From a virus: DNA of 64,000 nt. The stretch covers positions 1 to 64,000 of IMG/VR virus record IMGVR_UViG_3300027743_000001. One strand, 5' to 3'. The notes under the pieces are model-generated. The model was given only the letters and a program-made list of their open reading frames with translations, searched no databases and was not told the origin of the DNA. The translations under genes were made by a program, and so were the position numbers. Shown in pieces: positions 1 to 63,590 of the stretch. The number at the start of each line of letters is the position of its first letter. Position 1 is the first letter of the stretch.

Positions 1-1477
1 TCACGTAGAAGCCTTCAGGGTTGAGCTTGTTGATCATGCCACTGCCCACCGACGCCACCGAGCGGTACTTCTCCTGCAGCCGCTTGAGAACCTTCACCGC
101 CTGGTAGACGTCGACCCTCGCAGTGGCCGCGATCGTCTCGACGCCGCCGGCATAGATCGTCGCGTACATAGTTGACTTCAGAACCTGCCGCCGCTTGTCC
201 GACTTCTGGAAGCTCGGCTCGTTGTAGAGGTCCCGGCCGAGCATCACGAAGAAGTCCTCGCCCTGCTCGTCCGCGTCCCGCAGGGTCTGCTTGAGATCCT
301 CATCGTTGTTCAGGAAGGCCCACGTGCGCAGCTCGATCTGGCCGTAGTCGGCCGAGACGATCACGTGCCCCTCCCTGGCCTCCACCGCCTTCCGCACCGT
401 CAGGTCGCCCGTGGGGAGCTGCTGCAGCGGAGGGTTGGCTACCGACATACGGGTGGTCCGCGCCTGGCACGGTTGAATCTGCGGGTGGATGCGGGCCGTC
501 TCATCCAGTTGGTACCCAGAGGCTTCCGACATAGCAGCCAGATAATTGACCCGCGTCCTGTGCACATCTCGGAACTCCAATACGAGATCAGCAATGGGGT
601 GGTCGATGGCGCCAAGAGCTTCCTTGTCAACCGAGAGCTGGCCGCCGGCCGTCTTCCGTGCACCGGGCGGCATGACTCCCGCCAGCTGCAGCGCCTTGGC
701 TACGCTCGCGGGCGCACTCGGAGTTATGCCGTACTCCGATTGGAGTATGCGAGCTATGTTGGCTTCCTGCTCCACCAGTAGCTCAGCCTGATCTCGCAGG
801 TATGGCCCGTTGACCGGTAGCCCGTTGCGCGCCATGGCCGTGCAGATGTTGGTAGTAGCGATCTCCATGGAGTGGCACTCCTGCCACCGGACGTTTTCCC
901 GCCGCCTCCGGTACGTGTCATAGAGTGCCGCCGTCAGGCAGGTGTCGAGAACCCCGTAGCCCACGAACGGGCGCCAGTCGAGTGGGACAGTGGCCCAGCT
1001 CCAGCCATTCAGCGCCATGCCTGCCTTGAGCCGTTCCTCGCCCGCGCCGGCCCAGCCGCCGAACTCCCGCACCGCCAGCGGCTTTAGGCGCCGCGTGTCG
1101 TCTGACCAGTTGTCCAGCCCGGCCCAGATCATGCCGTCTTCCAGATGCTCGATCGGCATCCGGTAGCCCATCTCCCAGACTGCCCAGTAGTCGTACGGGA
1201 GGTTCCACCACACCTGCTTGACGCCGGCCCTGTCGCACCACTTCAGCGCTTCCATCCCGAGCCCGCGCCAGTCATCCCAGGGAACCGACCAGCCGCCGTC
1301 AGTGTCGCCGAACTGGAGCGTGCGGACTCGGAAGTCCGGGCGCCATTGCTGGAGCCCGGTACCTTCCGTGTCACACCCAACCCGCGTGCGTCCCGGCTGT
1401 GTCAACCAGGTCCAGAACTCAGCGACGTCCGCGACGTCAGAGACCATCTGGAACGTCAGGTTGAGTGGGTCGATCAT
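1..1477 (-). CDS. polA: DNA polymerase I family (PolA) with 3'-5' exonuclease domain; 3' end runs off the window
   Basis: Not in the ORF track; translated by hand from ATG 1477 (ATGA overlap with upstream gene), open to the edge. ExoI GCDTEGTGL, ExoII WNLPYD, ExoIII YGVLDT, TTRMSVANPPLQQLP, motif A SADYGQIELR, motif B RRQVLKSTMYATIYAGG. Confidence 0.96.
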   Translation of the reverse strand, partial: MIDPLNLTFQMVSDVADVAEFWTWLTQPGRTRVGCDTEGTGLQQWRPDFRVRTLQFGDTDGGWSVPWDDWRGLGMEALKWCDRAGVKQVWWNLPYDYWAVWEMGYRMPIEHLEDGMIWAGLDNWSDDTRRLKPLAVREFGGWAGAGEERLKAGMALNGWSWATVPLDWRPFVGYGVLDTCLTAALYDTYRRRRENVRWQECHSMEIATTNICTAMARNGLPVNGPYLRDQAELLVEQEANIARILQSEYGITPSAPASVAKALQLAGVMPPGARKTAGGQLSVDKEALGAIDHPIADLVLEFRDVHRTRVNYLAAMSEASGYQLDETARIHPQIQPCQARTTRMSVANPPLQQLPTGDLTVRKAVEAREGHVIVSADYGQIELRTWAFLNNDEDLKQTLRDADEQGEDFFVMLGRDLYNEPSFQKSDKRRQVLKSTMYATIYAGGVETIAATARVDVYQAVKVLKRLQEKYRSVASVGSGMINKLNPEGFYV

Positions 1478-1656
1478 GCGAAGCGCCGCTTCCGGATCTC
1501 TATCGTGGCATCCTCCAGCTGCTGCCAGGCCGCGTCCACGGTGTGCGGCAGATCCTTGCCCTGAAGGAGAGAGAACAGCTGGGTGGCCTCGGTACGGGTG
1601 AGACCGGCCACCTGCGCGTAGGTAGCAAACAGCATCGAAACTATGGCATCCAACAT
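1474..1656 (-). CDS. hypothetical protein
   Basis: 60-aa ORF with GGAG SD, translationally coupled to polA. Confidence 0.7.
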   Translation of the reverse strand: MLDAIVSMLFATYAQVAGLTRTEATQLFSLLQGKDLPHTVDAAWQQLEDATIEIRKRRFA

Positions 1657-1713
1657 GTGCTCCTAAAGATCGGGCCGGTAGCTCACGCTACCGGCCCGTG
1701 CTGGTGGTTGGTG

Positions 1714-2289
1714 TTAGGACCAGTCATCTTCTTTGGTGGGGGGATTGACGGCACCGGTCATGGTGAGACCCTCGCCGCCGAGTTCAATGTCGTCGTCGTC
1801 CAAACTGATCTCCTCTTCTCCATCCCCGAGGTTGCTGGCCCCGGAGTAGTCGCCGCCGGAGATAGCCGAGTCAACCCCGAGATTCTTGCGGAACCGAACC
1901 CGGTTGCGAGGCTGGCCGAGGTACTCGTCCTCATCCAGCCCGACCAGGATCTTCTGCCCGAGCATCTGCGCCGCGATCTGGTCGGCAGTCGGCCGCTCAG
2001 ACTTGATCCACTCCTGCGGAGCGCCCATGGCCTTCAGCCCCTGCGCGAAGATCCGCGCCGCGACCGAGTTTTCCGGGGACCACGTGAGCTGCTCGGAAAC
2101 CTGCCGGCCCTGCTGCGGACCGTTCATCGCTTCCAGAACGACCTTGAAACACTGCTTGCCGCCAGCCGTGATCGCCGCCGTGGACTTAACCACGACCATC
2201 TCGTACTCACCCTTGGGGAGAGGCTTGCCTTCCAGCTCCTCCCCGAACGCCTCGAACTCATCCGCGAAACTAAACTCACCGTCGCTCAC
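1714..2289 (-). CDS. DUF669-like single-stranded DNA-binding protein
   Basis: PLPKGEYEMVV...GPQQGRQV OB-fold-like pattern, acidic C-terminal tail, next to Sak4-like ATPase. Confidence 0.75.
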   Translation of the reverse strand: MSDGEFSFADEFEAFGEELEGKPLPKGEYEMVVVKSTAAITAGGKQCFKVVLEAMNGPQQGRQVSEQLTWSPENSVAARIFAQGLKAMGAPQEWIKSERPTADQIAAQMLGQKILVGLDEDEYLGQPRNRVRFRKNLGVDSAISGGDYSGASNLGDGEEEISLDDDDIELGGEGLTMTGAVNPPTKEDDWS

Positions 2290-3122
2290 TCTTCCTCCTT
2301 CCCTTCTCCTGTGCTGGCCGACGCATCACCGATGGTTGACACGACGGCCGGCTCCGCCATCAGCGGCCCATCCTTGAACACCAGCTTGATCAACTTGGAG
2401 AACGTGGTGTTGCGCGCCGCGATCTCTTCTGTCGTCTTGCCGGTCACCTGAGGCAGGGTAACGATGGCCGGGATACGCCCACCCACCCGCTCGCCCGCCT
2501 CGATCCGACCAGGAAGACGCCGCGTGCGAAGCTTACGCACTTCCTGGCCCGTCTTGTTGTCCGCCTCCACAAACAGATATGCGGTGACGTCCATCAGATA
2601 AGGGACCACTGTGTTCAGTTGCCCCTGCAAGTGTGGCCGGAGCATACCGTCTCCGGTCTCTTTCGTCATGGCTGTGACGACCACGGCCTCCAGCGGGTGG
2701 TTGGCATGGAACGTCAGGTCCCGAAGGTCCCGCATGAACCCGCCCACGACCCGGAGAACCGAGCCCCAGTCCTGCAGCTTGACCTGGTTGCGCCCCGCCA
2801 CGTCCTCGATATAGCGGTACTGCAGCTCAGAGATGCTATCAACCGACGCCGACCGGAACGGGTGCTTCCCGCCGTGCAGCCAGTCGAACGTCCGCTGGGC
2901 ATCCTGCCATTCTCGAACCGAGACCACAGCCGTATCCCAGTCGGAGGTCTTAGACCAAGAGGGAGGGGGATCGCGCGGATCCCACGCGACCCCCCTGATC
3001 GGCAGGAACCTGGCCGCGCTCTCTACATCGAAATACACACGAGGTGCCGGAGTGCTGGCAGCCAAGAGGGATTTGCCCACCTTGGACATACCGTGCACCA
3101 GCATAGAGAGAGCAGGATCCAC
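2286..3122 (-). CDS. Sak4/AAA_24-like ATPase (ssDNA annealing/recombination)
   Basis: Walker A HGMSKVGKS, Walker B-like SVDSISELQ, DVTAYL; typical Cas4-Sak4-SSB context. Confidence 0.85.
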   Translation of the reverse strand: MDPALSMLVHGMSKVGKSLLAASTPAPRVYFDVESAARFLPIRGVAWDPRDPPPSWSKTSDWDTAVVSVREWQDAQRTFDWLHGGKHPFRSASVDSISELQYRYIEDVAGRNQVKLQDWGSVLRVVGGFMRDLRDLTFHANHPLEAVVVTAMTKETGDGMLRPHLQGQLNTVVPYLMDVTAYLFVEADNKTGQEVRKLRTRRLPGRIEAGERVGGRIPAIVTLPQVTGKTTEEIAARNTTFSKLIKLVFKDGPLMAEPAVVSTIGDASASTGEGKEEE

Positions 3123-3778
3123 TACGCCCTCGCAGGAGCGTTGAACTGGCCGTTAGGGTTGTGCCCCGGCGGACGGTTGGAAGCCGGAGCCGTGGAGAAC
3201 CAGTCCTGAGGAGTGAAGATCTCATCGTTCGGGTAGGGCTGAACCGGAGCAGGCTGCTCCGAGTCCTCCGCCTGAGTGACCTCGGAGTTGGTCATCCACT
3301 GCCCGTTAGGCCAGCGGGTGAGCATCTCGGCCCGGGACTCGGAACTGACCCGGTTGGTGTAGTCGACCAGCTCCCGCGCCGACACCGCGTCCTGCGTCTT
3401 CATGTCAACCACGTTGCTGCCGTTGTAGATCCGGACGCCGTACTCCGGCTCCGGCTGAGGCTCCGGCTGCTGGAACTGCTGCGCGATCTGCTCCGGAACG
3501 GGGAGCCGCTGCCGGAAGCTGTGGAGGTTGACGTCCGTGCGCGCCCACCGTCCACGGTGGAGGAACACCCACACGTCCCCACAGCGCAGGCACGCCCACA
3601 TGATGCCGGGGTGCCAGTTGTCCGCCGAAGGGCGGATGCACTCGTGCTGACCTTCTGCTGTCATGCTGCTACGGACCTCTCTAATAGCATCCACGATCTC
3701 CGGCTCGGGGACCGTAGACCGCTGGCTGGTAGGCCAGATTCTCCATCCGGTCATGATTATTACAACCTTCTCTCTCAC
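3122..3778 (-). CDS. hypothetical protein with CxxC and Pro/Gln-rich linker
   Basis: ORF in operon; WACLRCGDVW. Confidence 0.6.
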   Translation of the reverse strand: MREKVVIIMTGWRIWPTSQRSTVPEPEIVDAIREVRSSMTAEGQHECIRPSADNWHPGIMWACLRCGDVWVFLHRGRWARTDVNLHSFRQRLPVPEQIAQQFQQPEPQPEPEYGVRIYNGSNVVDMKTQDAVSARELVDYTNRVSSESRAEMLTRWPNGQWMTNSEVTQAEDSEQPAPVQPYPNDEIFTPQDWFSTAPASNRPPGHNPNGQFNAPARA

Positions 3779-4010: not shown

Positions 4011-4943
4011 CTACACTGCCTCCTGGTCATCGGTATAGCGCTCGAACGGGTCTCCGACAACGTACAGGTCAGTGAGCATCTGCTCGGCCGCCGCCTTGCC
4101 GGTGGCCTGGTACTCCGCGCAAGGCAGCTTGAACGGGCAGGTAGCGCACTGCCACGACGGGTGGAACGGGGTAGCGATGCGATGGTCCAGCCCAGAGTCA
4201 AGATCACGCTTGGCCCGGATCATGTTGTTCAGAATGCCGATCAACCGGAACCGGTACGCCATCAGATCCATGTGGCTGATCGGGATCACCAGCCGCTTGT
4301 AGAACGGTGGCTTGGCCGCTGCCGTGCGGAGCACCTTCCTGAGCAGCGTGTAGACGATGCCGGCCACCCAGGGCTCCGCCTGGTCCCGATCTGAGCTGGC
4401 CTCTAGCAGCATGTAGAGCCGGCCCTGCGGGGACATCTCCAGACCCAGGATGGTTGGCTCACCGAAGTTGCCCACTGTCTTGTAGTCGTTGATGAAGATC
4501 GCACCGTCAGAGATCCGCCGGGACCGCCGGTCCAGCTTGCCCCGGACCAGGATGTCAACCGATTCCCCATCGACTTCCAGCGTGATCACTTCCTTGAGCT
4601 GCGCTTCCACGCCGAGAGTCTGCCAGTCGGCCGCCTCATCGTTGGCCCACTCGACGTATCCCTCCAGCATTGCGCGCCCGAGCTTGTTCTCCCTGTCCAA
4701 CCCGTCCGTGAACCCGCCGTGCGCCTTCTCGTACTCGTACATCATCAGCACGTCCCAAATGGCGCCGATATCGGCCCGACCATCTCCCTCCTCCCACAGC
4801 TCCAGCGCATGGTGGACCCGCGCGCCGAACGGAAGCGGCCCGGTTGGAGGCTCATCCTTGCGCCTGAGCTTCCTGTACGTGCCAAAAAACCATGAGCGTG
4901 GGCATGACATAAATCGCTGCATGTCCGAGTAGCTGGTCTGCAT
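4011..4943 (-). CDS. Cas4/RecB-like PD-(D/E)XK exonuclease
   Basis: SYSDMQRFMSCPRSW, FGARVHHALE, GKLDR, INDYKT, C-terminal CATCPFKLPC (Fe-S-type Cys). Confidence 0.9.
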   Translation of the reverse strand: MQTSYSDMQRFMSCPRSWFFGTYRKLRRKDEPPTGPLPFGARVHHALELWEEGDGRADIGAIWDVLMMYEYEKAHGGFTDGLDRENKLGRAMLEGYVEWANDEAADWQTLGVEAQLKEVITLEVDGESVDILVRGKLDRRSRRISDGAIFINDYKTVGNFGEPTILGLEMSPQGRLYMLLEASSDRDQAEPWVAGIVYTLLRKVLRTAAAKPPFYKRLVIPISHMDLMAYRFRLIGILNNMIRAKRDLDSGLDHRIATPFHPSWQCATCPFKLPCAEYQATGKAAAEQMLTDLYVVGDPFERYTDDQEAV

Positions 4944-4990: not shown

Positions 4991-5782
4991 ATGCAGTTCA
5001 CGCAGCGGGAGCTACGCAAGTTCGCGCCAGACTCCAGAAAACTGATCTTGCAAGTACAGGCGTCCGGCTGGCACGGGGACCGGATAGCACGGCACGGCGC
5101 CGTGTTGCTAGCACCAGACAAGACAGCCCGTATCTGCGTGCCAAGGCAGGTAAACGGCCGGCTTCTCAACAACACGATGGCCCCATATAAGCGCTGGCTT
5201 CTCCAGCAAAACCAGTACGACCCCGCCACCATCAGAGCAGAAGCAGAGGTTGACATGCCGGCGTGCGCAGAGTGCGGCAAGGTCTTCGAACGTAAGCAGC
5301 AGGTCACCGTCCACCACGCGATGGTCCACGACCTGAAGCAGTGCCCGCACTGCGAGCGGAAGATGAACGCCAGCAACCTGGCCCGTCACATCAACTCCGC
5401 GCACCAGCCGTTCCCTGAGCCCGAGACCGCACCGGTTGACACTGAAGCGCCGCTCACGCTGGCCGGTATCGAGCTGCCACCAGCCGCGTTTGACAGCTTC
5501 CCTGCTGATCTCCCGCACGGTGCTGACTACTTCAAGCCCTCGGCCGAACCCGAGCGGGACGGGCTGCTCGATTACTTCCGGCACAACGCCACCCCCGAGC
5601 AGCCGTCTGAGCAGCTGACAGCCATTCGCGCGATCCTCATCCCCAGCATGGAACGGGAAGCGAAGCGCAACCGCGCCCGCATAGCAGAGCTGGAGCGGAT
5701 GATCGTTGACCAGCAAGAGGTGCACCGCAAGGAGCTTGAGGACTGCTCCGCCAAGCTTGACCTGATCCGTGGACTGCTCTAG
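4991..5782 (+). CDS. protein with two tandem C2H2 zinc fingers and C-terminal coiled coil
   Basis: CAECGKVFERKQQVTVHHAMVH and CPHCERKMNASNLARHINSAH; heptad-rich C terminus; GGGGG SD before ATG 4991. Confidence 0.75.
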   Translation: MQFTQRELRKFAPDSRKLILQVQASGWHGDRIARHGAVLLAPDKTARICVPRQVNGRLLNNTMAPYKRWLLQQNQYDPATIRAEAEVDMPACAECGKVFERKQQVTVHHAMVHDLKQCPHCERKMNASNLARHINSAHQPFPEPETAPVDTEAPLTLAGIELPPAAFDSFPADLPHGADYFKPSAEPERDGLLDYFRHNATPEQPSEQLTAIRAILIPSMEREAKRNRARIAELERMIVDQQEVHRKELEDCSAKLDLIRGLL

Positions 5783-5811
5783 TTGACAGCCGTTGACCGA
5801 TGGTGTACAGT
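5783..5811 (+). promoter_or_regulatory. SigA/HrdB-type promoter with tandem GTTGAC
   Basis: TTGACA-N17-TACAGT; second GTTGAC 10 bp after the first. Confidence 0.85.
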
Positions 5812-5837: not shown

Positions 5838-6395
5838 ATGTGGATCATCGGTCAATACGGTTTCATCTCACTCGTCCAACACAAGGATGACCCAGACATC
5901 ATGCAAGTCCGCGCCCGGGTGCGTGAGGACATCCTCATGTACTTCCCAGGGGTGGAGATTGAAATGATCGTCGGCGCCGACTACCTGTATCGGGCGAACG
6001 TCCCGCGCAACATCGTTGCTGAGACAGTGGCCGCTGAGATCCTTGGGTACTCCGTGACCAGCCACGTCAAGGACGTTGCCGTTCAGTGCTCCCAGCCGAA
6101 CGCCTACCGGCAGACAGCCTATTACGCCTGCTGGAGAGCCCTGTCGGACATGCAGCCATACGCGCCATACTCCCGGCTCCCGCGTGCCGAAGAGAAGCGG
6201 CTGCTGAACCGCCGAGTTGGCGTGCGCCCGTGGGCAAACGACATGCTCCCGTTCGAGCAGGACGTGATGTACCCGGCGTGGGACGGGCCAACGCAGGACA
6301 TCCCCGAACTGGAAGAGGACAAGCAGCCCCGGGACAAGCAGGGCCGGTTCGCCTCCAAGCACCGCAAGAGCAAGAAGGGCAAGACCAATGGATAA
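5838..6395 (+). CDS. phage hypothetical protein
   Basis: MWIIGQYGFISLVQHK...QVRARVREDI...ADYLYRA; SD GAGGG; directly after promoter. Confidence 0.8.
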   Translation: MWIIGQYGFISLVQHKDDPDIMQVRARVREDILMYFPGVEIEMIVGADYLYRANVPRNIVAETVAAEILGYSVTSHVKDVAVQCSQPNAYRQTAYYACWRALSDMQPYAPYSRLPRAEEKRLLNRRVGVRPWANDMLPFEQDVMYPAWDGPTQDIPELEEDKQPRDKQGRFASKHRKSKKGKTNG

Positions 6396-6789: not shown

Positions 6790-7323
6790 ATGAGCCCGAA
6801 AACCAAACTCGCCATCGGCTTGTTGTGGTTCCTGGTGCTGCTCTCCCTCCTGTGGATGTTCGTACCGGCCGTGTCAACCACCGGCCTCTCGGCTTTCCGG
6901 TGGTTCAGCCCGACCAAGGTATACGTGCAGATTGGCCCCGGCCTTGGTCTCTGGCCACTGGCCGAGGCTGTGGAGTTCGTAGACCAGCACACGTCCACGC
7001 AGGCTGTGATCGGTGACTGCCGCCGGGGTAGCCGCTGTATCCGGGTCACCTCCAACCCCAAACTGCCTATCCACATCGCTGGCCGTGCCAGCTGGTCCAA
7101 TGAAGTGCTGGAGGTCCGGGTGGAGTTCAACCCGGCGTATGCCTCGCGGCCCGTGAACAGTCGGCTCCAGATGTCCGTGCACGAGCTAGGGCATGCGTTC
7201 GGGATTCACAGCCACAATCCATTGTGCACGTCGGTCATGTACGCATATATTACGTGCCAGGGCGAGGGTATCCCGCCCAAAAAGTTCACTGCCGCTGAGG
7301 TAGAGATCCTAGAGAGGCACTAG
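6790..7323 (+). CDS. secreted/membrane-anchored zinc metalloprotease (matrixin/M10-like)
   Basis: N-terminal hydrophobic segment; HELGHAFGIHSH, Met-turn SVMY. Confidence 0.85.
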   Translation: MSPKTKLAIGLLWFLVLLSLLWMFVPAVSTTGLSAFRWFSPTKVYVQIGPGLGLWPLAEAVEFVDQHTSTQAVIGDCRRGSRCIRVTSNPKLPIHIAGRASWSNEVLEVRVEFNPAYASRPVNSRLQMSVHELGHAFGIHSHNPLCTSVMYAYITCQGEGIPPKKFTAAEVEILERH

Positions 7324-7658: not shown

Positions 7659-8114
7659 ATGGGCGACAAGATCGCGAAGAAGGGCGAGGCTTTCGAGTCC
7701 TCGATCAAGTTCAACCGCCGCGTGCTGTGGGCGAATGATGAGATCGTCTTCTATGTCTATGATGGCGGCCCGACCGAGCAGTACAGCTCGGCCCCGCCGG
7801 AAGACTTCATGATCCTGCCCCAGCCCAAGCGGCCCGGCCTGAAGGTCGGAGACGCCGTGCGGCTGGCACACAGTGTCGGCAAGCAGCGCTTCCGCGTGCT
7901 CTACCTGATTGAGGAGTACGCGCTGATCAAGGATGAGCTGGCCTCCCCCCAGGAAGGGACCATCATCCAGATCGAGCTGGCCGAGCTGCTGGAGCCGGTC
8001 GGCTGGAATGTCAACCGGATCGACTGGCTTGATGACTCTACGTGGTCCGTGACGATCACCGGAACCGGCAAGATACCGGACTGGGCAGGCAACACCGACC
8101 ACCCGCTCTCTTAG
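7659..8114 (+). CDS. hypothetical protein
   Basis: ORF in tight operon; high-GC codon usage. Confidence 0.65.
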   Translation: MGDKIAKKGEAFESSIKFNRRVLWANDEIVFYVYDGGPTEQYSSAPPEDFMILPQPKRPGLKVGDAVRLAHSVGKQRFRVLYLIEEYALIKDELASPQEGTIIQIELAELLEPVGWNVNRIDWLDDSTWSVTITGTGKIPDWAGNTDHPLS

Positions 8115-8390: not shown

Positions 8391-8395
8391 CTGTG

Positions 8396-8424
8396 TTGGC
8401 AGCCGTTGATAAGCCTGCTACACT
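8396..8424 (+). promoter_or_regulatory. SigA-type promoter with tandem GTTG repeat
   Basis: TTGGCA-N17-TACACT with GCCGTTGAT in the spacer. Confidence 0.75.
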
Positions 8425-53332: not shown

Positions 53333-53368
53333 GTGGAGTTCTGGTTGACAGACCCTTATACTCCTCAG

Positions 53369-53928: not shown

Positions 53929-54224
53929 GTGAGGACACCCCGACCGCCGTTGGTGGCTACTGGGAAGACTGGAGTTCCCCCACCGAAGGGAAGTGGGTCT
54001 ACACCACGGAGCCGTTCGAAGAGATCGCTGTGATCGAGCTTGGCGGTCCCGGTGGGCGTTGGCGGATCATCATGGAGGACTACAACGATGCTCTCCCCGA
54101 TGCCATCCCTCCCATGTCAACCGCTGACCTGAAGCGCTTCGCCGAGGGTCTCCACTCGCTGGGGTACTACGGCAACATCCAGTGGTCGCGCGACCAGCGC
54201 GAGTCCGGCGCCGGCTACATCTGA
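53925..54224 (+). CDS. hypothetical protein
   Basis: ATGA overlap. Confidence 0.6.
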   Translation: MSEDTPTAVGGYWEDWSSPTEGKWVYTTEPFEEIAVIELGGPGGRWRIIMEDYNDALPDAIPPMSTADLKRFAEGLHSLGYYGNIQWSRDQRESGAGYI

Positions 54225-54340: not shown

Positions 54341-54371
54341 GTTGCCACTCGTTGACATAGGTTGCTAGTGT
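54341..54371 (+). promoter_or_regulatory. promoter with three GTTG repeats at 10-bp spacing
   Basis: GTTGCCACTC GTTGACATAG GTTGCTAGTG T; TTGCCA-N18-TAGTGT, 7 nt before ATG 54379. Confidence 0.7.
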
Positions 54372-54909: not shown

Positions 54910-54922
54910 GCGGTTGACACAG

Positions 54923-55293: not shown

Positions 55294-55346
55294 TGATCTT
55301 CACCCCCTCTCAGATCACCCCTATAGTGTACGTCACACCCCCTGTG

Positions 55347-55375
55347 TTGACAGGCGTTGACCCACGAGCTACAGT
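55347..55375 (+). promoter_or_regulatory. SigA-type promoter with tandem GTTGAC
   Basis: TTGACA-N17-TACAGT; GCGTTGACC in the spacer. Confidence 0.85.
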
Positions 55376-55652: not shown

Positions 55653-55859
55653 ATGCAGAACCTCGCTCACGTTTTCATCGAGAAGCCCCAGTCCGAGATC
55701 GTGTCAACCATGGTCGCGCTGGCCAACCAGGCCCACGAGACATGGCACCGGGCCAGCCAGGAGGGCGCGGCGCCGTCCTACATCATCGCGCTGCACGCGC
55801 GCTATCAGGCATTTCAGATAGCAGCTGAGGTCGCTCAGGGGCTGGAGTCCCGCGCATGA
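55653..55859 (+). CDS. hypothetical protein (paralogue of 56041..56298)
   Basis: AAGGAG SD; LANQA...QEGAAP; upstream GTTGACA...TATAGT (55604-55623). Confidence 0.7.
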   Translation: MQNLAHVFIEKPQSEIVSTMVALANQAHETWHRASQEGAAPSYIIALHARYQAFQIAAEVAQGLESRA

Positions 55860-56044: not shown

Positions 56045-56298
56045 TGCAAGACCCCGTCCACCTGTGGAATCGCCTCTCGCAGGAAGACATCGCGTGTCAA
56101 CTGGAGCACCTCGCCCGGCAGGCTGAGGCTGTCTGGGAGGAGGCTGTCAACCAGGAAGGCATGGCTCCCACCATCCTCGCTGCAATGCGGGTACGTGCGC
56201 ACGAGACCAGGCAGGCTGCGCTGATCGCTGCCGGCCGGAACAACATCATGTTGGACGTGATCCAGAGGACGGTGACCCGGGAGTGGGAAAAGGCATGA
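56041..56298 (+). CDS. hypothetical protein
   Basis: LARQA...QEGMAP; ATGA overlaps at both ends. Confidence 0.65.
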   Translation: MMQDPVHLWNRLSQEDIACQLEHLARQAEAVWEEAVNQEGMAPTILAAMRVRAHETRQAALIAAGRNNIMLDVIQRTVTREWEKA

Positions 56299-57743
56299 GG
56301 CGCCGGCTGGCTGACGATAGTGGCGCTTCTCTCATTATGGCGCTGATCTTCATCGTGGTCGTGGCCGTGGTGATGGGCGCTGTGCTTACCCTCACAGACG
56401 CGAACCTGCGCAACACCACAGCTCTGAGGGACCGAGCCGGCAAGGACTACGGCGCTGATGGCGCTGCCAAGATCGCGATCAAGCAGCTGGAGAATGACCA
56501 CTACCTTGGAGGCGACTGCCCCGCGCTGAACGTCCAGGCTGGCTACGCGGTCCAGTGTGTGGCCGATGAGGGCAACTCCACCGTGGGGGACATCAACTCT
56601 GTCAACCGGCAGGCAACCGCGCTGCTCGCAATGGCTCCGGCCGGACAGGGCCTCTACTTCAACATTCAGGGCAACCCAGCTACACAGTCGATCAAGGTCA
56701 AGGGTGGGCTGTTCTCGCACTCTGACTTCGTGGTTGATCACGGCTGGCTGGATTCTCTCGGCCCGGTGACCGCGCGGGGTGACTGCCTGCTGCTGAACGA
56801 CACGGCCAGGCTCACGTCTTCTAAGCAGGACTGCAAGATCATGACGGCTGTCAACCGGCTGGGCAAGGATCCGAACTATTCCGTTCCGGCCGTGACCGGG
56901 GATGCCACTGTGCAGCCATGCACCAAGACCAAGAAGACCCCCTACGTGGTGACGCCCGGCATTCTCGACGCTGCCGACATGATCGTGCTGAACAAGCTGA
57001 CCTCAAACCACGACGACTGCAAGGATGTGGTGATCTGGCTCAAACCAGGTGATTACCAGTTCAACGCGGTGTGGGAGATCAAGTCTGGCAAGGTGATTGG
57101 TGGAGGCAGCGGCGCGCCGCCGGACACTGTGGACCCCGAGAAGCAGGGATACTGCCCCGCTCCCATCCCGCTGGAGGGCCAGGAAGATACGTGGACCCCG
57201 CCGGCTGCCGACCTCGGAGTGACGATCACGTTCGGCCCATCCGCGCAGCTGTCAATGGTGCCTACGCCGACCAAGGTCACTCCCTCCATGGAGCTGTGCG
57301 GCGACTACGAGAAGAACAAGCCGCCGATCGTGTTCTATGGCAGGGCCGCTGCGCCAGATACTCTGGCCATCAAGACAGACGCTAACGCCGACTTCCGGCT
57401 GTACGTCCAGGGAACCACGTACCTGCCAACATCTGTGATTGACCTTCACCTTAAGAAGGACGTGCTTCCGTTCTTCCGCTCTGGCATCACGTCCTACCGG
57501 TTCCGTGTAGACGGGGTTGGCAACGCCAGCTCGGTCACGCCGCTGGTGGAGACTCCGGACGCTGAGGGCACCAGCAACTCCGGCATGGTGTGGCTGGAGG
57601 TCCGTAGCACGGATGACAACACCGTTCGGCTGCGGGCCAAGGTGTACTTCTACATGGCCAAGCAGACCGAGGATGAGCCGCCGGTTCCGATTGACCCGCC
57701 CCAGTACGCCAGCAAGGTTGTCAGCTGGGCCACGCAACGATAG
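56295..57743 (+). CDS. PilX-like minor pilin / pilus assembly protein
   Basis: MRRRLADDSG|ASLIMALIFIVVVAVVMGAVL class III-like signal lacking Glu5; YGADGAAKIAI; large Cys-containing beta domain. Confidence 0.75.
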   Translation: MRRRLADDSGASLIMALIFIVVVAVVMGAVLTLTDANLRNTTALRDRAGKDYGADGAAKIAIKQLENDHYLGGDCPALNVQAGYAVQCVADEGNSTVGDINSVNRQATALLAMAPAGQGLYFNIQGNPATQSIKVKGGLFSHSDFVVDHGWLDSLGPVTARGDCLLLNDTARLTSSKQDCKIMTAVNRLGKDPNYSVPAVTGDATVQPCTKTKKTPYVVTPGILDAADMIVLNKLTSNHDDCKDVVIWLKPGDYQFNAVWEIKSGKVIGGGSGAPPDTVDPEKQGYCPAPIPLEGQEDTWTPPAADLGVTITFGPSAQLSMVPTPTKVTPSMELCGDYEKNKPPIVFYGRAAAPDTLAIKTDANADFRLYVQGTTYLPTSVIDLHLKKDVLPFFRSGITSYRFRVDGVGNASSVTPLVETPDAEGTSNSGMVWLEVRSTDDNTVRLRAKVYFYMAKQTEDEPPVPIDPPQYASKVVSWATQR

Positions 57744-58355: not shown

Positions 58356-59030
58356 CTAGAACTTGTCCCGGAACTTCAGGATGATGCCATTGCTCAGGGT
58401 GTCTGCCAGGTGAGCGATGTGATTCTGCGAAGCGTCGTAAGCCGTGAGGCTGTCCCCGAACCGCTTCTGCAGCTCGAACGTGATCTCAGAAATCAGCTGG
58501 CTGAGGTGGATCTGCATCGCGTCCCGCATGGCCTGTTGTGGCCAGTGCACCGGGTCCGCGTTGCTCAGGAAGTCCGCGATCTGGTTTCCGTTGATCCGCC
58601 ACGCGGTAACGGCTGCCGAGAGCGCTCCCTGGTTGTTGGCCTTGGCTGCTGTCAGCACAGCTACCGCTCCCGCGATGTGCGCCTTCAGGAGCCCTGTCAA
58701 CCGGGCTCCGTTCGTCTCCCCGTAGTAGGGGTTGATCGAACCGCCGATGTCCTCCTGGTTGCGCAGGAGCCGAGACGCCGTAGCGTTGAACCGCTCGTTC
58801 GGCTGAGGCTCAGCGATGAACTCCACAATGGCCAGTCGCGTGTACGCGACGTGCTCGAACCACAGCTGCCGCATCTTGTCGTGGAACACTCCCTCGGCCA
58901 GCGTCGCTGGAGGAGCCACTCGTGTGGGGGTTACAGCAACGGTGGGGGTCGGAGTCGGATTCGCTTTCGTGCAAGCGGCCATGGTCAGCGCGAGGCTAGC
59001 CACCACGAAAAGCGAGAGAATTTTTCTCAT
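58356..59030 (-). CDS. lipoprotein with His-containing helical-bundle domain
   Basis: Lipobox MAAC, PTPT linker, MRQLWFEHVAYTR...PYYG...LLKAHI...IADFL...HL...HIAHLAD. Confidence 0.75.
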   Translation of the reverse strand: MRKILSLFVVASLALTMAACTKANPTPTPTVAVTPTRVAPPATLAEGVFHDKMRQLWFEHVAYTRLAIVEFIAEPQPNERFNATASRLLRNQEDIGGSINPYYGETNGARLTGLLKAHIAGAVAVLTAAKANNQGALSAAVTAWRINGNQIADFLSNADPVHWPQQAMRDAMQIHLSQLISEITFELQKRFGDSLTAYDASQNHIAHLADTLSNGIILKFRDKF

Positions 59031-59097
59031 TGTCTGCCCTTTCGTCCGGGTTGCTGGAGCGTAACACGTGGTCTGGGTCACAAAGAAGGCCCGTTTG

Positions 59098-59126
59098 TTG
59101 ACACCCGTTGACAGACGAGCTAGTGT
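59098..59126 (+). promoter_or_regulatory. SigA-type promoter with tandem GTTGACA
   Basis: TTGACA-N17-TAGTGT; CCCGTTGACA in the spacer. Confidence 0.85.
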
Positions 59127-60192: not shown

Positions 60193-60401
60193 CCTGCCGC
60201 CACTGTGGGGCCGCGCTCACGTACGAGCGCGGCCGGGAGGTCTACCTGGCCGCCGGGTCGATGCTGTGCACCCCGGCCGCTCGTGGAGCCCGCTGTGCTT
60301 TCGAGTCCTACCGAGCGGTTGACATCAACCCGCTGGAGCTGAAGTTCCACGATGGCTCGTGCAACTGCCAGGCCAGCATCCTGCACGTCCCGACCTTCTG
60401 A
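60189..60401 (+). CDS. small Cys-rich protein
   Basis: MTCRHCGAAL; GTGA overlap. Confidence 0.6.
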   Translation: MTCRHCGAALTYERGREVYLAAGSMLCTPAARGARCAFESYRAVDINPLELKFHDGSCNCQASILHVPTF

Positions 60402-60413: not shown

Positions 60414-60626
60414 ATGACCGCCCCTACGCCCACCCTGCCGTACCTCCGGCCACGTTCGAACGGCCACATCCTCCACATCCCGGTTGACATGGAAGCTTCC
60501 GGCTGGCAGCCAGCCCTGTGCGGCACGCTCGGCCGGGAGCCGGACGTCTACCGCCGCGTCGACAAGATCTGCCGGATCTGCACTAGTCGCCTGGTCAACG
60601 GCAATGTGAGCCACGCCACTGTCTAG
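60414..60626 (+). CDS. small zinc-binding protein (H...LCG...CxxC)
   Basis: ILHI...ALCG...CRIC. Confidence 0.65.
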   Translation: MTAPTPTLPYLRPRSNGHILHIPVDMEASGWQPALCGTLGREPDVYRRVDKICRICTSRLVNGNVSHATV

Positions 60627-60629
60627 TGG

Positions 60630-60659
60630 TTGGCATCCGTTGACACGGGCTGCTACAGT
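60630..60659 (+). promoter_or_regulatory. SigA-type promoter with tandem repeat
   Basis: TTGGCA-N18-TACAGT; CCGTTGACA in the spacer. Confidence 0.75.
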
Positions 60660-61441: not shown

Positions 61442-61663
61442 ATGAACGTCAAGCCCATCAGCGCCAACAACGTCGCTTTCTACAAGTACGGCAAGGTCAT
61501 CGCCGTTGCCAGCCCAGAGCGGGGCGGCTGGAAGCTGGTTGACATGTACGGCGAGGCCGTGGGTGGTGGCGAGCCGCTGCCGAGCCTGGGGGCGGCCGAG
61601 GCCGTCGTCCTCTCGAAGACCTATCAGGAGTACGTAGACAAGGCCCACGCCATGGCCGGCTGA
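61442..61663 (+). CDS. hypothetical protein (paralogue of 59184..59435)
   Basis: GGAGGAG SD; GGGEPLPSLGAAE. Confidence 0.75.
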   Translation: MNVKPISANNVAFYKYGKVIAVASPERGGWKLVDMYGEAVGGGEPLPSLGAAEAVVLSKTYQEYVDKAHAMAG

Positions 61664-61793: not shown

Positions 61794-62183
61794 CTAATCA
61801 GGGACGATCTCCCCATCCACAATATCGGTATCCGCCGGCTGCGGCGCCGCCGGCTCGTGCGGCCGAGCTGCGATCTGTGTCAACCGGTCCCGCAGGGCCG
61901 CGATAGCTCCGTCGTTCTGTGGGCCGCTGTCGTCGGCGTTGTCAACCGGTGCCGCTAGGCGAACCGCCACGTCCACCCGCGCGGGCAGGCCCACGCGGTC
62001 CAGGACGGCCGTAGCGGCATTCACCCGGGCCAGGTCATTGCGGCCGTTCTGCATCACGTCTGTGAGCGTGTCAACCGACAGGCTCGCGGCGCTGGCCAGG
62101 CCGAGCCAGGTTTCGCGCACGAGCGCGACCGCCTCGGAGAAGTTCGTCGGGCGGTCTGGCAGATTGGCGCTGGTCTCCATCAC
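61794..62183 (-). CDS. putative terminase small subunit
   Basis: ARVNAATAVLDRVG and C-terminal DIVDGEIV, patterns typical of actinophage TerS. Confidence 0.6.
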   Translation of the reverse strand: MMETSANLPDRPTNFSEAVALVRETWLGLASAASLSVDTLTDVMQNGRNDLARVNAATAVLDRVGLPARVDVAVRLAAPVDNADDSGPQNDGAIAALRDRLTQIAARPHEPAAPQPADTDIVDGEIVPD

Positions 62184-62782: not shown

Positions 62783-62943
62783 TCCCGCCAGTGCGTGTCA
62801 ACCGCGTCTGTGATCTCCTGCCAGCACCTGATCAACTCGTCGTTCGTGATCACTGTCTTGTGGCCAGCCGACACGATGACAGCCGCGCTTGCCGCCTTCA
62901 CGCTGAACTCGTTGAGTAGCGCGATGAACTCCGTCTTGGTCAT
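62779..62943 (-). CDS. hypothetical protein (54 aa)
   Basis: Hand translation MTKTEFIALLNEF...; TAGTCT -10 six nt before ATG. Confidence 0.5.
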   Translation of the reverse strand: MTKTEFIALLNEFSVKAASAAVIVSAGHKTVITNDELIRCWQEITDAVDTHWRD

Positions 62944-62975
62944 TCCGCGAGACTAGCACGCGCTCGGCTGTGTGG

Positions 62976-63004
62976 TTGACACGTGTTGGCAAGACTGCTA
63001 CTAT
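62976..63004 (+). promoter_or_regulatory. SigA-type promoter with tandem repeat
   Basis: TTGACA-N17-TACTAT; GTTGGCA in the spacer; ATG 6 nt later. Confidence 0.85.
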
Positions 63005-63010
63005 AGGTTT

Positions 63011-63196
63011 ATGACCAAGACAGAGATCGACGAGCAGCGGGACGAGATCCTCCGGGACGCGCTGGATCAGTACGTGACCAACATCGACCTAGAAGATGAA
63101 GAGACTTCGCTGGCCGACCGCGTGAGGTACAACGTCGCCTCCGCCATGCTGGACGAGCTGAACAACGCTTTCGTGGTCAGGATGGGCGCGCTGTGA
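63011..63196 (+). CDS. hypothetical protein
   Basis: Leaderless start after promoter. Confidence 0.7.
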   Translation: MTKTEIDEQRDEILRDALDQYVTNIDLEDEETSLADRVRYNVASAMLDELNNAFVVRMGAL

Positions 63197-63372
63197 ACGA
63201 GCTACTTCTCCGGTCCGTGAGCGGCAACCGGACCCACATCTACTCCCGCGAGACGGGCACGCGGTTCGGCCGCCGCTACATCGCGGTGTGCGGCGCCGCG
63301 ATGTTCTCGTTGGCGGCAACCGGCCCGGTGGCAGACTGCCCCCGGTGCCTGGCAAAGAAGGGCGCAGCATGA
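63193..63372 (+). CDS. small zinc-binding protein (H...CG...CxxC)
   Basis: RTHIY...AVCG...DCPRC; coupled overlaps. Confidence 0.6.
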   Translation: MNELLLRSVSGNRTHIYSRETGTRFGRRYIAVCGAAMFSLAATGPVADCPRCLAKKGAA

Positions 63373-63590
63373 ACTACGCGATGTCGTCGACCGGGCTTTT
63401 CCACCTGGTTGACAAGGGAGCAGCGGCAACCCTGTGCGGCTCGGCCGTGGTGTGGGAGGTCTCGCAGATCAAGCACGAGACGGACGCCGTCGTGTCGGAG
63501 CGCCACCCGATCCAGGATGAACAGGCGCTGGACTGGCTGGCCGAGCACCCCTGGGATCTGTGCCGCACCTGCAAGGCGGCGGCGCCGTGA
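63369..63590 (+). CDS. small zinc-binding protein (paralogue of 63744..63950)
   Basis: YAMSSTGLFH...LCG...DEQALDWLAEHPWDLCRTCK. Confidence 0.7.
   Translation: MNYAMSSTGLFHLVDKGAAATLCGSAVVWEVSQIKHETDAVVSERHPIQDEQALDWLAEHPWDLCRTCKAAAP

Follow-up and report, generated by a model that had tools for sequence, protein, structure and literature searches.

What reads an asymmetric word, GGTTGACA, that recurs about once per kilobase along a phage genome, mostly inside genes? The genome is that of an uncultured 86.5-kb actinobacteria phage (whole record 86,542 bp, 62.3% GC), and its first 64,000 nucleotides are the stretch analyzed here (the window). A program search found exactly 69 matches to GGTTGACA/TGTCAACC in the window, between positions 625 and 63414, the same number that an earlier reading by eye (the sequence-only reading) had given as a minimum. 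Dinucleotide-preserving shuffles of the window contained 2.04 +/- 1.46 copies (largest value 6), an enrichment of ~34-fold; the earlier estimate of ~50-fold over 1.4 expected copies was right about the enrichment and too high about its size. In the whole record, GGTTGACA was the top-ranked 8-mer by frequency, with 102 copies (41 forward, 61 reverse; 1.18 per kb) compared with two of the reversed control word. The base at -1 was C in 62 of these copies and T in 37, and the full word has nine letters, YGGTTGACA, with a sharp 9-bp logo and flanks that carry no signal. An extension of the octamer had been proposed before and is real, but Y at -1 fits better than the letters then suggested, CCGGTTGACA accounting for only 32/102 copies.

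About 91% of the copies lie inside coding sequence, and codon-preserving nulls, suggested earlier as a check, left the enrichment intact. The whole-genome ORF set held 94 copies; shuffling synonymous codons left 7.8 +/- 2.5, and shuffling codon order left 2.5 +/- 1.4. The Val-Asp dipeptide was written GTTGAC at 67 of 148 occurrences (~11% expected from codon usage), and the word was present at 92 of the 151 positions whose amino acids permit it. Synonymous alternatives were emptied: GGTCGACA was found 0 times (9.6 expected) and GGTGGACA once (9.8 expected). Shuffled proteins gave 83 +/- 9.5 word-compatible peptides and the real proteins 153, so the protein sequences themselves have been shaped to accommodate the word. 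Of 63 aligned word sites, 48 (76%) were identical in G001, a relative with 83% nucleotide identity; for 8-mers in general the figure was 30.6% (P = 1e-13). Sites also turn over while density is kept, with 15 and 17 lineage-specific sites in this phage and G001, respectively, and deep relatives have few word positions in common with this phage. We conclude that YGGTTGACA is under strong selection as a signal in the DNA itself, written against codon preference. The sequence-only reading had placed selection or drive on the DNA and not on the proteins, and the codon nulls, the saturation, the recruited peptides and the conservation in G001 strongly support it.

The array has no orientation. In the window, 40 copies are sense and 23 antisense to the ORF that contains them, six fall outside ORF calls, and four codon phases are used across both orientations, bearing out the earlier description of both orientations and several frames. 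Both inverted pairs noticed by eye exist: 24580(-)/24592(+) in the major head gene consists of two exact words, and 13856-13874 combines an exact arm at 13865 (-) with a 7-of-8 copy. The word-free stretches reported in the tape measure, terL and fibre genes were real as well and were mapped as three gaps. In this phage 61 genes carry at least one site, compared with 52.9 +/- 3.6 under random placement. Spacing was even in three relatives (CV 0.49-0.56 vs 0.98 for random placement) and near random here (CV 0.85, P = 0.06), so that the argument from coverage is stronger for the relatives than for this genome.

Table 1. Word sites, tandem-box promoters, word-free gaps and selected genes in the window. 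Word sites are exact GGTTGACA matches; the frame column gives orientation to the ORF and codon phase, the peptide column the residues at the site, and the G001 column the state in the aligned relative.
Feature	Position	5' base	Frame	Peptide	G001	Details
word	625..632 (-)	C	sense 2	SVDK	kept	
word	1400..1407 (-)	T	sense 1	WLTQ	kept	DNA pol I gene
word	2334..2341 (+)	T	antisense 1	VSTI	kept	
word	3403..3410 (-)	T	sense 2	VVDM	kept	
word	4553..4560 (-)	C	sense 2	SVDI	kept	
word	5248..5255 (+)	A	sense 2	EVDM	differs	
word	5434..5441 (+)	C	sense 2	PVDT	kept	
word	6872..6879 (-)	T	antisense 1	VSTT	kept	
word	8009..8016 (-)	C	antisense 2	NVNR	differs	
word	8859..8866 (-)	C	sense 2	PVDS	kept	
word	9127..9134 (-)	C	sense 1	RLTG	differs	
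word	9845..9852 (+)	T	sense 2	LVDK	kept	
word	9916..9923 (+)	C	sense 1	RLTM	kept	
word	12568..12575 (-)	C	sense 2	PVDT	kept	
word	13865..13872 (-)	C	sense 2	AVDT	unaligned	exact arm of pair
word	15589..15596 (+)	C	antisense 2	IVNR	unaligned	
word	16313..16320 (-)	C	sense 1	RLTG	unaligned	
word	16943..16950 (+)	C	antisense 1	LSTA	unaligned	
word	20602..20609 (-)	C			kept	gene junction, outside ORF calls
word	21136..21143 (+)	C	antisense 1	VSTV	kept	
word	21767..21774 (+)	C	antisense 2	SVNR	kept	
word	22092..22099 (-)	C	sense 1	RLTP	kept	
word	24580..24587 (-)	T	sense 2	LVDN	differs	inverted pair
word	24592..24599 (+)	C	antisense 2	DVNR	kept	inverted pair
word	26143..26150 (+)	T	sense 2	LVDI	kept	
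word	26434..26441 (+)	C	sense 1	RLTA	kept	
word	27424..27431 (-)	C	sense 1	RLTP	kept	
word	27619..27626 (+)	C	antisense 1	MSTE	kept	
word	28098..28105 (-)	C	sense 2	AVDT	kept	
word	30579..30586 (+)	C	antisense 2	SVNR	kept	
word	31089..31096 (-)	C	sense 2	PVDM	differs	
word	33005..33012 (-)	C	sense 2	AVDT	kept	
word	34526..34533 (-)	T	sense 2	VVDI	differs	
word	35579..35586 (-)	C	sense 2	TVDT	kept	
word	35858..35865 (-)	C	sense 2	TVDT	kept	
word	37362..37369 (-)	T	sense 1	WLTQ	differs	
word	38463..38470 (+)	C	antisense 1	MSTD	kept	
word	40021..40028 (+)	C	antisense 2	LVNR	kept	portal gene
word	40997..41004 (-)	C			kept	gene junction
word	41913..41920 (-)	T	antisense 2	FVNQ	kept	
word	42102..42109 (-)	C	antisense 2	RVNR	kept	
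word	42721..42728 (-)	T	sense 1	WLTF	kept	
word	45806..45813 (-)	C			unaligned	inside collagen-like fibre gene
word	46347..46354 (-)	G			unaligned	inside collagen-like fibre gene
word	46536..46543 (+)	C	antisense		kept	inside collagen-like fibre gene
word	50221..50228 (+)	T	sense 2	VVDR	unaligned	
word	51295..51302 (+)	C	sense 2	AVDN	differs	
word	52565..52572 (-)	T	antisense 1	LSTR	unaligned	
word	52665..52672 (-)	T	antisense 2	TVNQ	unaligned	
word	52718..52725 (-)	C	antisense 1	LSTG	unaligned	
word	53343..53350 (+)	T	sense 1	WLTD	unaligned	
word	53837..53844 (-)	T	antisense 1	MSTT	unaligned	
word	54115..54122 (-)	C	antisense 1	MSTA	kept	
word	54435..54442 (+)	T	sense 2	VVDS	kept	
word	54912..54919 (+)	C			differs	intergenic, terminator-like hairpin directly after
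word	55702..55709 (-)	T	antisense 1	VSTM	kept	
word	56145..56152 (-)	T	sense 2	LVDS	mismatched at 4/8 bases	
word	56600..56607 (-)	C	antisense 2	SVNR	kept	
word	56849..56856 (-)	C	antisense 2	AVNR	differs	
word	58695..58702 (-)	C	sense 1	RLTG	unaligned	
word	60317..60324 (+)	C	sense 2	AVDI	unaligned	
word	60482..60489 (+)	C	sense 2	PVDM	unaligned	
word	61537..61544 (+)	T			unaligned	outside ORF calls
word	61878..61885 (-)	C	sense 1	RLTQ	kept	
word	61940..61947 (-)	C	sense 2	PVDN	differs	
word	62069..62076 (-)	C	sense 2	SVDT	kept	
word	62796..62803 (-)	C	sense 2	AVDT	unaligned	
word	62974..62981 (+)	T				-35 box of promoter 62975..63004
word	63407..63414 (+)	T	sense 2	LVDK	unaligned	
tandem-box promoter	5782..5811 (+)					GTTGACA-N3-GTTGACC-N7-TACAGT; precedes candidate gene at 5838
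tandem-box promoter	8395..8424 (+)					GTTGGCA / GTTGATA; -10 TACACT
tandem-box promoter	25854..25883 (+)					GTTGACA / GTTGACC; -10 TATAGT
tandem-box promoter	51535..51564 (+)					GTTGACA / GTTGAGT; -10 TACACT
tandem-box promoter	54341..54371 (+)					GTTGCCA / GTTGACA; -10 TAGTGT; spacer 18 nt
tandem-box promoter	55346..55375 (+)					GTTGACA / GTTGACC; -10 TACAGT
tandem-box promoter	59097..59126 (+)					GTTGACA / GTTGACA; -10 TAGTGT
tandem-box promoter	60629..60659 (+)					GTTGGCA / GTTGACA; -10 TACAGT; spacer 18 nt
tandem-box promoter	62975..63004 (+)					GTTGACA / GTTGGCA; -10 TACTAT; -35 box is word 62974..62981
word-free gap	16943-20602					spans 980-aa ORF, tape measure by position
word-free gap	42721-45806					terL and C-terminal part of collagen-like fibre gene
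word-free gap	46536-50221					spans tail-collar ORF
collagen-like fibre gene	44907-46709 (-)					
candidate reader	4991..5782 (+)					263 aa; HicA-like N-domain, two C2H2 zinc fingers, long C-terminal helix
second clade-linked gene	5838..6395 (+)					185 aa; adjoins C2H2 gene; basic C-terminal tail

Arrays were present in every motif-positive record of one portal clade and absent from sister phages. In the portal tree, a branch with SH-aLRT 91 separates 11 motif-positive rows from seven motif-free rows. The five complete motif-positive genomes hold 102, 109, 70, 66 and 59 copies of GGTTGACA, and G407 holds three. No host-wide signature was detected in 401 sampled Actinomycetota genomes, where the density of the word reached at most 0.095 per kb and never came within 12-fold of that of the phage, though the true host may lie outside the sample. 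The sequence-only reading had named equal abundance in the host as the result that would make the word a host signature; with no sampled host enriched and the whole phage clade sharing the word, the outcome favors that reading.

The same core recurs in the clade's own promoters, which have a tandem pair of GTTGACA boxes at a spacing of 10 bp in this phage and 9 bp in relatives. This phage has 16 of them (period 10), G405, G406 and G410 have 17-20 apiece (period 9), and G407 has none; no such regulon was found in the 401 Actinomycetota genomes. The dispersed words were considered as promoters and rejected, a -10 box accompanying only 3-4 of 102. G precedes GTTGACA in 392 of 449 single copies and in 14 of 110 tandem copies (Fisher P = 1e-51). 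Hence there are two classes of site, dispersed single words, always with a 5' G, and paired promoter boxes mostly without it. This difference weakens the proposal that the words are decoys for sigma region 4, the third-ranked explanation of the sequence-only reading. Their core is a perfect -35 hexamer, and SigA region 4, as a universal host reader, would explain a word unchanged across deep divergence; however, the dispersed words need YGG 5' of TTGACA, and real promoter boxes avoid that G. For a Chi-like, modification or packaging mark, ranked second, no polarity, conserved methyltransferase or host enrichment was found. The last proposal, that a pilin reads the word as ComP reads DUS, was right in its premise, as there is a type IV pilin-like gene at 57954-58301, but nothing links this gene to the word.

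The first-ranked explanation holds that a phage protein binds the word and has a role at promoters as well. It is the best reading and draws support from the tandem boxes; that the protein coats or protects the genome is conjecture. We consider it an evenly balanced judgment that the array comprises ~100 single asymmetric sites for a putative clade-specific, probably phage-encoded DNA-binding factor. One sequence-specific factor of the clade would bind ~100 solitary YGGTTGACA sites, and either it or a close partner would recognize the tandem boxes in the clade's SigA-type promoters, where one GTTGACA box is the -35 box and the other lies ~10 bp downstream. Tandem sites would thus be regulatory, at ~16 promoters, and solitary sites, roughly one per gene, may serve the factor in marking, bridging or shielding the phage chromosome as a whole. 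Alternatively, the solitary sites might titrate the factor during genome replication.

Which protein might be this factor? Among the proteins named by the sequence-only reading, only the C2H2 protein has a fitting phyletic pattern. The "wHTH" at 9255 matched no family and is shared with the motif-free relative. Only this phage and its closest relative carry the HNH protein, for which the motif-free relative has no more than a weak match. The best candidate, still a weak one and probably not the reader, is the HicA-like/two-C2H2-finger/coiled-coil protein 4991-5782. It is found in motif-positive genomes only, a phyletic argument that sets five related motif-positive genomes against one motif-free genome, 87% complete, and so is not independent evidence. 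Its fingers are of the DNA-binding type: Pfam zf-C2H2 scored 28.2 bits (cut-off 25.2), the Cys/His ligands are invariant among eight homologues, and Foldseek returned HicA 6g26_F (prob 1.00) and the two-finger peptide 2drp_A (prob 0.99). A head joined by a flexible linker to a dimerizing helix would suit paired sites in tandem as well as single sites in either orientation. The usual base-contacting residues differ between two sub-clades with an identical core word, which argues against canonical reading of the core by this protein. The adjoining gene at 5838 is present in 5/5 complete motif-positive genomes and missing from G407; its product gave no Pfam or PHROG family and no clear PDB fold, and homologues also occur in unrelated phages, the one checked being without an array.

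Among known systems, stoperators form a similar array, but two of the features that define stoperators are missing here.

The window holds 69 copies of the octamer GGTTGACA, read on either strand, where dinucleotide-preserving shuffles give 2.04 ± 1.46. Over the whole phage genome (G000; 86,542 bp, 62.3% GC), whose first 64 kb form the window, there are 102 copies, and the word is the commonest 8-mer. The logo is sharp, with a pyrimidine (C 62, T 37) in front of GGTTGACA and flanks that carry no information, giving the full form YGGTTGACA; in three deeper relatives with the array (G405, G406, and G410) the word extends to YGGTTGACAC(G). It is not equal to its own reverse complement, TGTCAACC, and hence is not a palindrome. 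Relative to transcription, 55 copies in G000 are sense and 38 antisense, and five genomes together give 188 and 162 (binomial P = 0.18). Both the count with its enrichment and the occurrence in either orientation regardless of gene direction had been claimed in a sequence-only reading of this DNA, and both are borne out. A scan of IMG/VR for GTTGACANNNGTTGACA returned lone chance matches only, in unrelated contigs. As candidates for the identity of the word, the DnaA box, the pho-box, and WhiA GACAC mismatch at critical positions, as does the PafBC -26 element (tGTCgg).

The G000 record carries a 28-bp repeat at its ends, and a DNA polymerase gene spans them; the assembly is therefore probably circularly closed. 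The genome encodes a major head protein, portal, large terminase, and major tail protein, a set of DNA-metabolism proteins (DNA polymerase I, PD-(D/E)XK nuclease, AAA_24 ATPase, DUF669, SNF2 helicase, and primase-polymerase), and an Rv2525c-like lysin; no tRNA was found in the window. ORF calling was crude and GC3-based, and it overlooked the fibre gene, if not others. In GenBank phages the portal has 877 matches, every one in an actinophage and the best at 42% identity; a 24-kb megablast against the same phages gave no close cultured relative. The DNA was found in four metagenome datasets of freshwater sediment and soil, and no RNA dataset with it was listed.

Several genes deserve mention in their own right. 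A 2730-aa ORF has the portal gene on one side and a MuF-like head-morphogenesis gene on the other, and for this reason is not the tape measure. Its N-terminal region holds a peptidoglycan-binding domain and a 2H (2'-5' RNA ligase-like) phosphoesterase domain, and in all it looks like a virion protein of the giant, "polyvalent" kind. The ORF is kept throughout the clade that carries the array and is barely detectable in G407, a relative without it. A type IV pilin-like protein is encoded behind a promoter of its own, after a 486-aa ORF without assigned function; its gene is also present in G001, the closest relative with the array, and absent from the remaining array-bearing genomes. Such a gene is unusual in an actinophage and may hint at a type IV-piliated host or at superinfection exclusion. 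An island of two genes, for a MORC-like ATPase and a DNA methyltransferase, is private to G000, both genes being missing in G001 and the other relatives, and may be a defence or counter-defence cassette.

Features of the phage genome referred to in the text (window positions unless marked G000)
Feature	Position	Strand	Remarks
Candidate reader protein gene	4991-5782	+	adjoins the next gene
185-aa protein gene	5838-6395		
Major tail protein gene	22358-24010	-	no word in G000, G001, G405, or G406
Giant virion protein gene	31287-39479	-	
Collagen-like (Gly-X-Y) fibre gene	44907-46709	-	600 aa; C-terminal half of lower GC, zero words
Intergenic word	54912-54919		
486-aa ORF	56283-57743		
Type IV pilin-like protein gene	57954-58301	+	115 aa; N_methyl PF07963, E = 1.4e-9; prepilin cleavage/methylation motif G/FTLIE
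AMIN-like domain (PF24837) paralogue	62213-62782	+	E = 2e-16; early region
Tandem promoter with common spacer	62975-63004		
AMIN-like domain (PF24837) paralogue	G000 64546-65091	+	E = 3e-22; early region
HATPase_c_3 (MORC-like) ATPase gene, then DNA methyltransferase gene	G000 65184-68280		outside the window; ATPase 693 aa, methyltransferase phrog_24333
DNA methyltransferase gene of this island	G000 67474-68280		outside the window
Intergenic word	G000 69595-69602		
Tandem promoter with common spacer	G000 82586	-	

The words lie largely in genes: 93-94 of the 102 fall inside ORF calls (91% in genes), and at least two further ones in the missed fibre gene. The 94 copies in the ORF set compare with 7.8 ± 2.5 when synonymous codons were shuffled within genes and with 2.5 when codon order was shuffled. 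Four codon phases are in use, reading xVDx and (R/W)LT in sense and xVN(R/Q) and (M/L/V)ST in antisense; the fifth gives a stop codon, and the sixth needs Cys-Gln-Pro, for which the proteins hold zero compatible positions. As many as 92 of the 151 protein-compatible positions are occupied by the word. Words synonymous with it hardly occur: there are 0 copies of GGTCGACA against 9.6 expected and 1 of GGTGGACA against 9.8 expected. Compatible peptides themselves number 153, compared with 83 ± 9.5 after residues were shuffled; hence amino acids, and not just codons, have been bent toward the word. Selection targets the DNA rather than the proteins, and the earlier suggestion of selection or drive on the DNA itself is supported by the codon shuffles, the saturation, and the recruitment of peptides alike.

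Comparison with G001 (86,173 bp; 83% nucleotide identity over 48.6 kb) showed 48 of 63 aligned sites to be identical, against a background identity of 30.6% for all aligned 8-mers (P = 1e-13 for the excess). There are also lineage-private sites, 15 in G000 and 17 in G001, some of which differ at 4 of 8 bases. The deep relatives have few positions in common (for example, one in the AAA_24 gene, two in that of the giant virion protein), with density maintained. We therefore conclude that density is selected more than exact places.

Genes bearing at least one site number 61 in G000, against 52.9 ± 3.6 under random placement. The densest class consists of small accessory genes shared only with G001, at 1.77 per kb compared with 0.99 in core genes. 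Word-free stretches include a 980-aa ORF at the tape-measure position, the C-terminal part of the fibre gene, terL, and the major tail gene; the major head gene is likewise word-free in G405 and G406. The 980-aa ORF is replaced in G001 and the word-free part of the fibre gene is low in GC, and the absence of the word in these two is likely to reflect recent import from outside the clade; the lower GC of the fibre C-terminal half and its lack of the word point to a receptor-binding tip acquired recently. Exclusion of the word from the most highly expressed genes may come from the rare codons that it needs or from tight protein constraints. Spacing in G000 is near random (coefficient of variation 0.85 vs 0.98; P = 0.06, not significant). 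Spacing in G405, G406, and G410 is even (0.49-0.56, P < 0.0002), with minimum gaps of 164-257 bp. Each of the two intergenic words of the table stands directly 5' of a GC-rich terminator-like hairpin that has a T run after it.

To place the array phylogenetically, we scanned IMG/VR with a portal profile and obtained 16 loci, 9 with the word at 0.5-0.9 per kb and 7 with zero. In a quick maximum-likelihood version of the portal tree, the 11 word-bearing rows group together across one branch (SH-aLRT 91) and form four deep sub-lineages. Portal divergence within this clade reaches down to 46% identity, and the word is invariant. The complete genomes of the clade hold 102, 109, 70, 66, and 59 copies, and the motif-free G407 (107 kb) holds 3.

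We then counted the word in 401 Actinomycetota genomes, an even sample that covers a small part of the phylum. The top density was 0.095 per kb, compared with 1.18 per kb in G000, and most genomes had 10-50 copies, near the count of the reversed control word. The sites of the densest genome (G121) are scattered over its contigs at about 1 per 20 kb, with no phage-like cluster. The result was the same without the 15 genomes that are unpublished, none of which is among the densest. A host-genome signature is thus rejected within these 401 genomes; equal abundance in the host, which the sequence-only reading had named as the finding that would undo a phage system, was seen in none of these possible hosts.

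The TTGACA -35 hexamer is present within every word, and we analyzed the surroundings of the words for promoter elements. TAnnnT follows at 16-19 nt in just 4 of 102 words; at spacings of 3-21 nt it is not above background in G000, save for 3 words at 17 nt, and in G405, G406, and G410 together it follows 1 of 195 words at any spacing in this range. Words as promoters at any spacing are thus rejected. The clade has promoters of a distinct build, which we call tandem-box promoters. The 16 in G000, 9 of them in the window, start with a GTTGACA-like -35 box, have another box, GTTGAC(A/C), at an offset of exactly 10 bp downstream, and reach TAnnnT after a further 7-8 nt; exact words double as the -35 box in 3 cases. 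G001 promoters share this build, and G405, G406, and G410 have 17-20 such promoters each, with boxes 9 bp apart. None was found in G407, the promoters of which use TWGACA followed by a different element. The base 5' of GTTGACA is G in 392 of 449 single copies but in only 14 of 110 tandem promoter copies (five genomes; Fisher P = 1e-51). This split ties the dispersed word to the promoter-recognition system of the clade, yet marks it as a separate site class. A search for a host regulon of tandem boxes in the same Actinomycetota sample (11 unpublished genomes included, without effect) gave at most 13 per genome, mostly coding Val-Asp repeats.

The two tandem promoters listed in the table have the spacer GTTGGCAAGA in common and use an exact GGTTGACA as the -35 box; promoters sharing this spacer may be a separate regulatory subclass. 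G407 promoters read TWGACA(S)ACTA ... TACACT. In the same genome (L043-L048), a conserved leader, CCGAGCAAAGGA, occurs a few bases before many start codons, e.g., at 99922, 100619, and 102725 (-), and looks like an extended Shine-Dalgarno-like element.

One way to read the array is that host RNA polymerase is itself the reader: -35 boxes without a -10 box would hold SigA region 4 or the holoenzyme, forming a polymerase sink or antenna that diverts transcription capacity from a TTGACA-poor host chromosome. The core is indeed the exact -35 consensus that phage promoters use, a universal host reader predicts a word invariant across the observed portal divergence, and the sampled host genomes hold just tens of copies. 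However, three extra bases (YGG) are constrained 5' of the hexamer; promoter boxes avoid a 5' G, and therefore the dispersed word is not simply the best -35 box; and G407, with similar SigA-type promoters, has no array. A sink also needs no even spacing, yet the relatives show it. We consider polymerase capture unlikely.

More probably, the reader would be encoded by the phage. ORF sets of the five complete array-bearing genomes were clustered with BLASTP against those of G407, a small and related sample. Three families occur in all five genomes and, by clustering, not in G407: a 185-aa protein, the giant virion protein, and a 161-aa protein. The last is not clade-specific, because tblastn finds it in G407. 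The 185-aa protein belongs to no known family and has no named relatives in the protein atlas, and no PDB structure clearly matches its fold (best Foldseek E = 0.07, best VIA Z = 4.4); weak structural rows include LAGLIDADG proteins and the T4 MotA C-domain. Its homologues occur in FelixO1-like and Pseudomonas phages. The case for it as a dedicated reader is weakened by these homologues in unrelated phages, of which the one examined, Touem01, is without a hyper-abundant word. In that Pseudomonas phage (L176, 19216-21266), the homologue lies directly upstream of a gene annotated "DNA restriction methylase."

The gene adjoining that of the 185-aa protein also has homologues in all five array-bearing genomes. 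Its product has no match in 50,697 GenBank phages, and metagenome and IMG/VR scans with the C2H2 alignment gave nothing beyond the same clade. The N-domain of this product resembles HicA (Foldseek 6g26_F, prob 1.00, rmsd 1.9 over 56 residues). Two C2H2 fingers are present as well (Pfam zf-C2H2, 28.2 bits vs a cut-off of 25.2; Foldseek 2drp_A, prob 0.99), and C92, C95, H108, H113, C118, C121, and H133 are invariant in 8 homologues. A disordered linker precedes a C-terminal helix of about 58 residues. The predicted build could suit the reading of an asymmetric site and pairing at tandem or distant sites. The usual base-contacting residues of the fingers are not conserved between sub-clades. That this zinc-finger protein reads YGGTTGACA is possible but doubtful.

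With such a reader, the virus would keep a "chromosome address code": a phage-encoded zinc-finger/coiled-coil protein would bridge or coat the 9-bp sites in a CTCF-like manner and so distinguish phage from host DNA, and the one-base promoter variant would couple copy number to transcription by titration. We regard this scheme, too, as unlikely.

Improbable as well is a Chi-like self-mark, which would switch host AdnAB/RecBCD or the phage PD-(D/E)XK exonuclease and helicase from degradation to recombination, protecting ends and feeding recombination-dependent replication. An asymmetric, octamer-sized word in genes resembles Chi in E. coli and in RecBCD-dependent phages (PMC3784561). The phage encodes a PD-(D/E)XK nuclease, AAA_24 ATPase, DUF669, and SNF2 helicase; two orientations would serve two DNA ends; and the even spacing in relatives suits a site near any break. 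Against this, orientation along G000 is random in a runs test (49 runs vs 50.0 ± 4.8) and so without polarity, no enrichment was seen in any of the 401 sampled host genomes, contrary to what a host Chi should show, and the recombination genes are present in motif-free G407 too. The tandem promoter boxes are left unexplained.

The word might also be the target of a DNA-modifying or nicking enzyme, with modified or nicked sites as a mark for self-recognition, anti-restriction, packaging, or ejection. The short, sharp logo, working either way round, is like an enzyme recognition site, and the core GTTGAC fits the GTYRAC class of restriction sites; the genome has HNH nucleases and the DNA methyltransferase of the private island. 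But this methyltransferase is missing from G001 and the other array-bearing genomes, no methyltransferase or nuclease is exclusive to the clade, and a restriction/modification site is as a rule avoided or neutral and does not show 12- to 50-fold enrichment. We judge an enzyme target to be quite improbable.

Less probable still is molecular drive without function, in which biased repair or gene conversion turns near-matches into exact copies, a process that has also been proposed to explain uptake sequences and HIP1. The almost empty synonymous neighbours, the private sites that differ from the orthologous sequence at half of their bases, and the near-random spacing in G000 are all consistent with it. 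Drive alone, however, does not predict the even spacing and minimum gaps of the three relatives, nor the strict division of GG singles from promoter boxes that lack the G; a clade-specific conserved repair enzyme was not found, and drive would still require a sequence-specific reader.

Finally, we think it very unlikely that the word is a host signature or uptake-like tag, abundant in the natural host (e.g., a DUS read by a type IV pilin) and mirrored or exploited by the phage via its own pilin: it resembles DUS/USS in density, non-palindromic form, use of two orientations, and shaping of peptides, and the phage does encode a pilin-like protein, but no such density exists in the 401 sampled genomes, sister phages of the wider group are entirely without the word, and the pilin gene is confined to G000 and G001 within the clade.

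A few cellular genomes are known to contain hyper-abundant words that take precedence over the choice of codons and even of amino acids (uptake sequences, Chi, and HIP1), and phages are known for modest intergenic operator or stoperator arrays. Here a virus has a genic word at uptake-sequence density, stable over a deeply diverged clade and one base away from the promoter boxes of that clade. If the word has a protein reader, the phage would possess a system that marks or organises its own genome throughout, and possibly a new means of discriminating viral from host DNA or of timing expression. In practical terms, the word is a clean metagenome signature for members of an uncultured actinophage clade, and word-free regions, e.g., the fibre tip and the tape measure, mark recently imported DNA.

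Among known systems, uptake sequences (Neisseria DUS and Pasteurellaceae USS) are nearest in genomic pattern, but cellular. They too are non-palindromic 9-12-mers at about 1 per kb, found in two orientations and mostly in genes, which shape codon and amino-acid choice and turn over at kept density. DUS and USS fill the chromosome of a competent bacterium, and the uptake machinery reads them; our word, in contrast, fills a virus, and such density was not found in the 401 sampled possible hosts. HIP1 and other cyanobacterial iterated palindromes are likewise hyper-abundant genic octamers without a known reader. Unlike HIP1, a palindrome of cellular genomes, the word lacks symmetry and sits in a virus. 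Chi belongs primarily to host genomes, is strand-polar, and reaches about one copy per 4-5 kb, whereas ours is 4-5 times denser, without polarity, and without enrichment in sampled hosts. The likeness is to Chi in RecBCD-reliant phages, where an octamer is written into phage coding sequence by DNA-level selection (PMC3784561).

The tandem promoters recall systems in which promoters that are otherwise of the housekeeping type have an extra conserved box between -35 and -10: the T4 MotA box at -30, used in sigma appropriation, and the PafBC -26 element of mycobacteria, used in sigma adaptation (PMC8635444). Indeed, the downstream GTTGACA box, 7-8 nt upstream of the -10 box, is at about the position of the PafBC element, although its sequence differs from tGTCgg. 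Those systems replace the -35 box, whereas a perfect -35 box is kept here, and they have no dispersed intragenic array.

In mechanism, the nearest relatives are the Cluster A stoperators (L5 gp71, Bxb1 gp69, and the TipsytheTRex repressor; PMC9283540, PMC6550527). These too are found in actinophages, with many copies of a short asymmetric site spread genome-wide (102 copies of 9 bp in our case), the same or a related box on phage promoters overlapping the -35 hexamer, and a kind of site that a monomeric reading head would naturally read. A stoperator array has about 20-36 copies, which occupy short gaps between genes and point the way of transcription; once reversed, they no longer act (PMC9283540). 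In contrast, about 100 sites are present here, 91% of them in genes and freely oriented, with amino acids bent to the word, and the promoter boxes are tandem and one base off the dispersed word. No integrase or HTH repressor family was detected among the ORFs scanned with Pfam or PHROGs, which included most of those above 300 aa. Since the array is neither intergenic nor co-oriented as stoperators are, DUS is cellular, Chi is polar and of the host, and HIP1 is palindromic, we do not file it in any of these families. We class it as a variant among genome-wide operator-like arrays, outside the stoperator, uptake-sequence, Chi, and HIP1 families.
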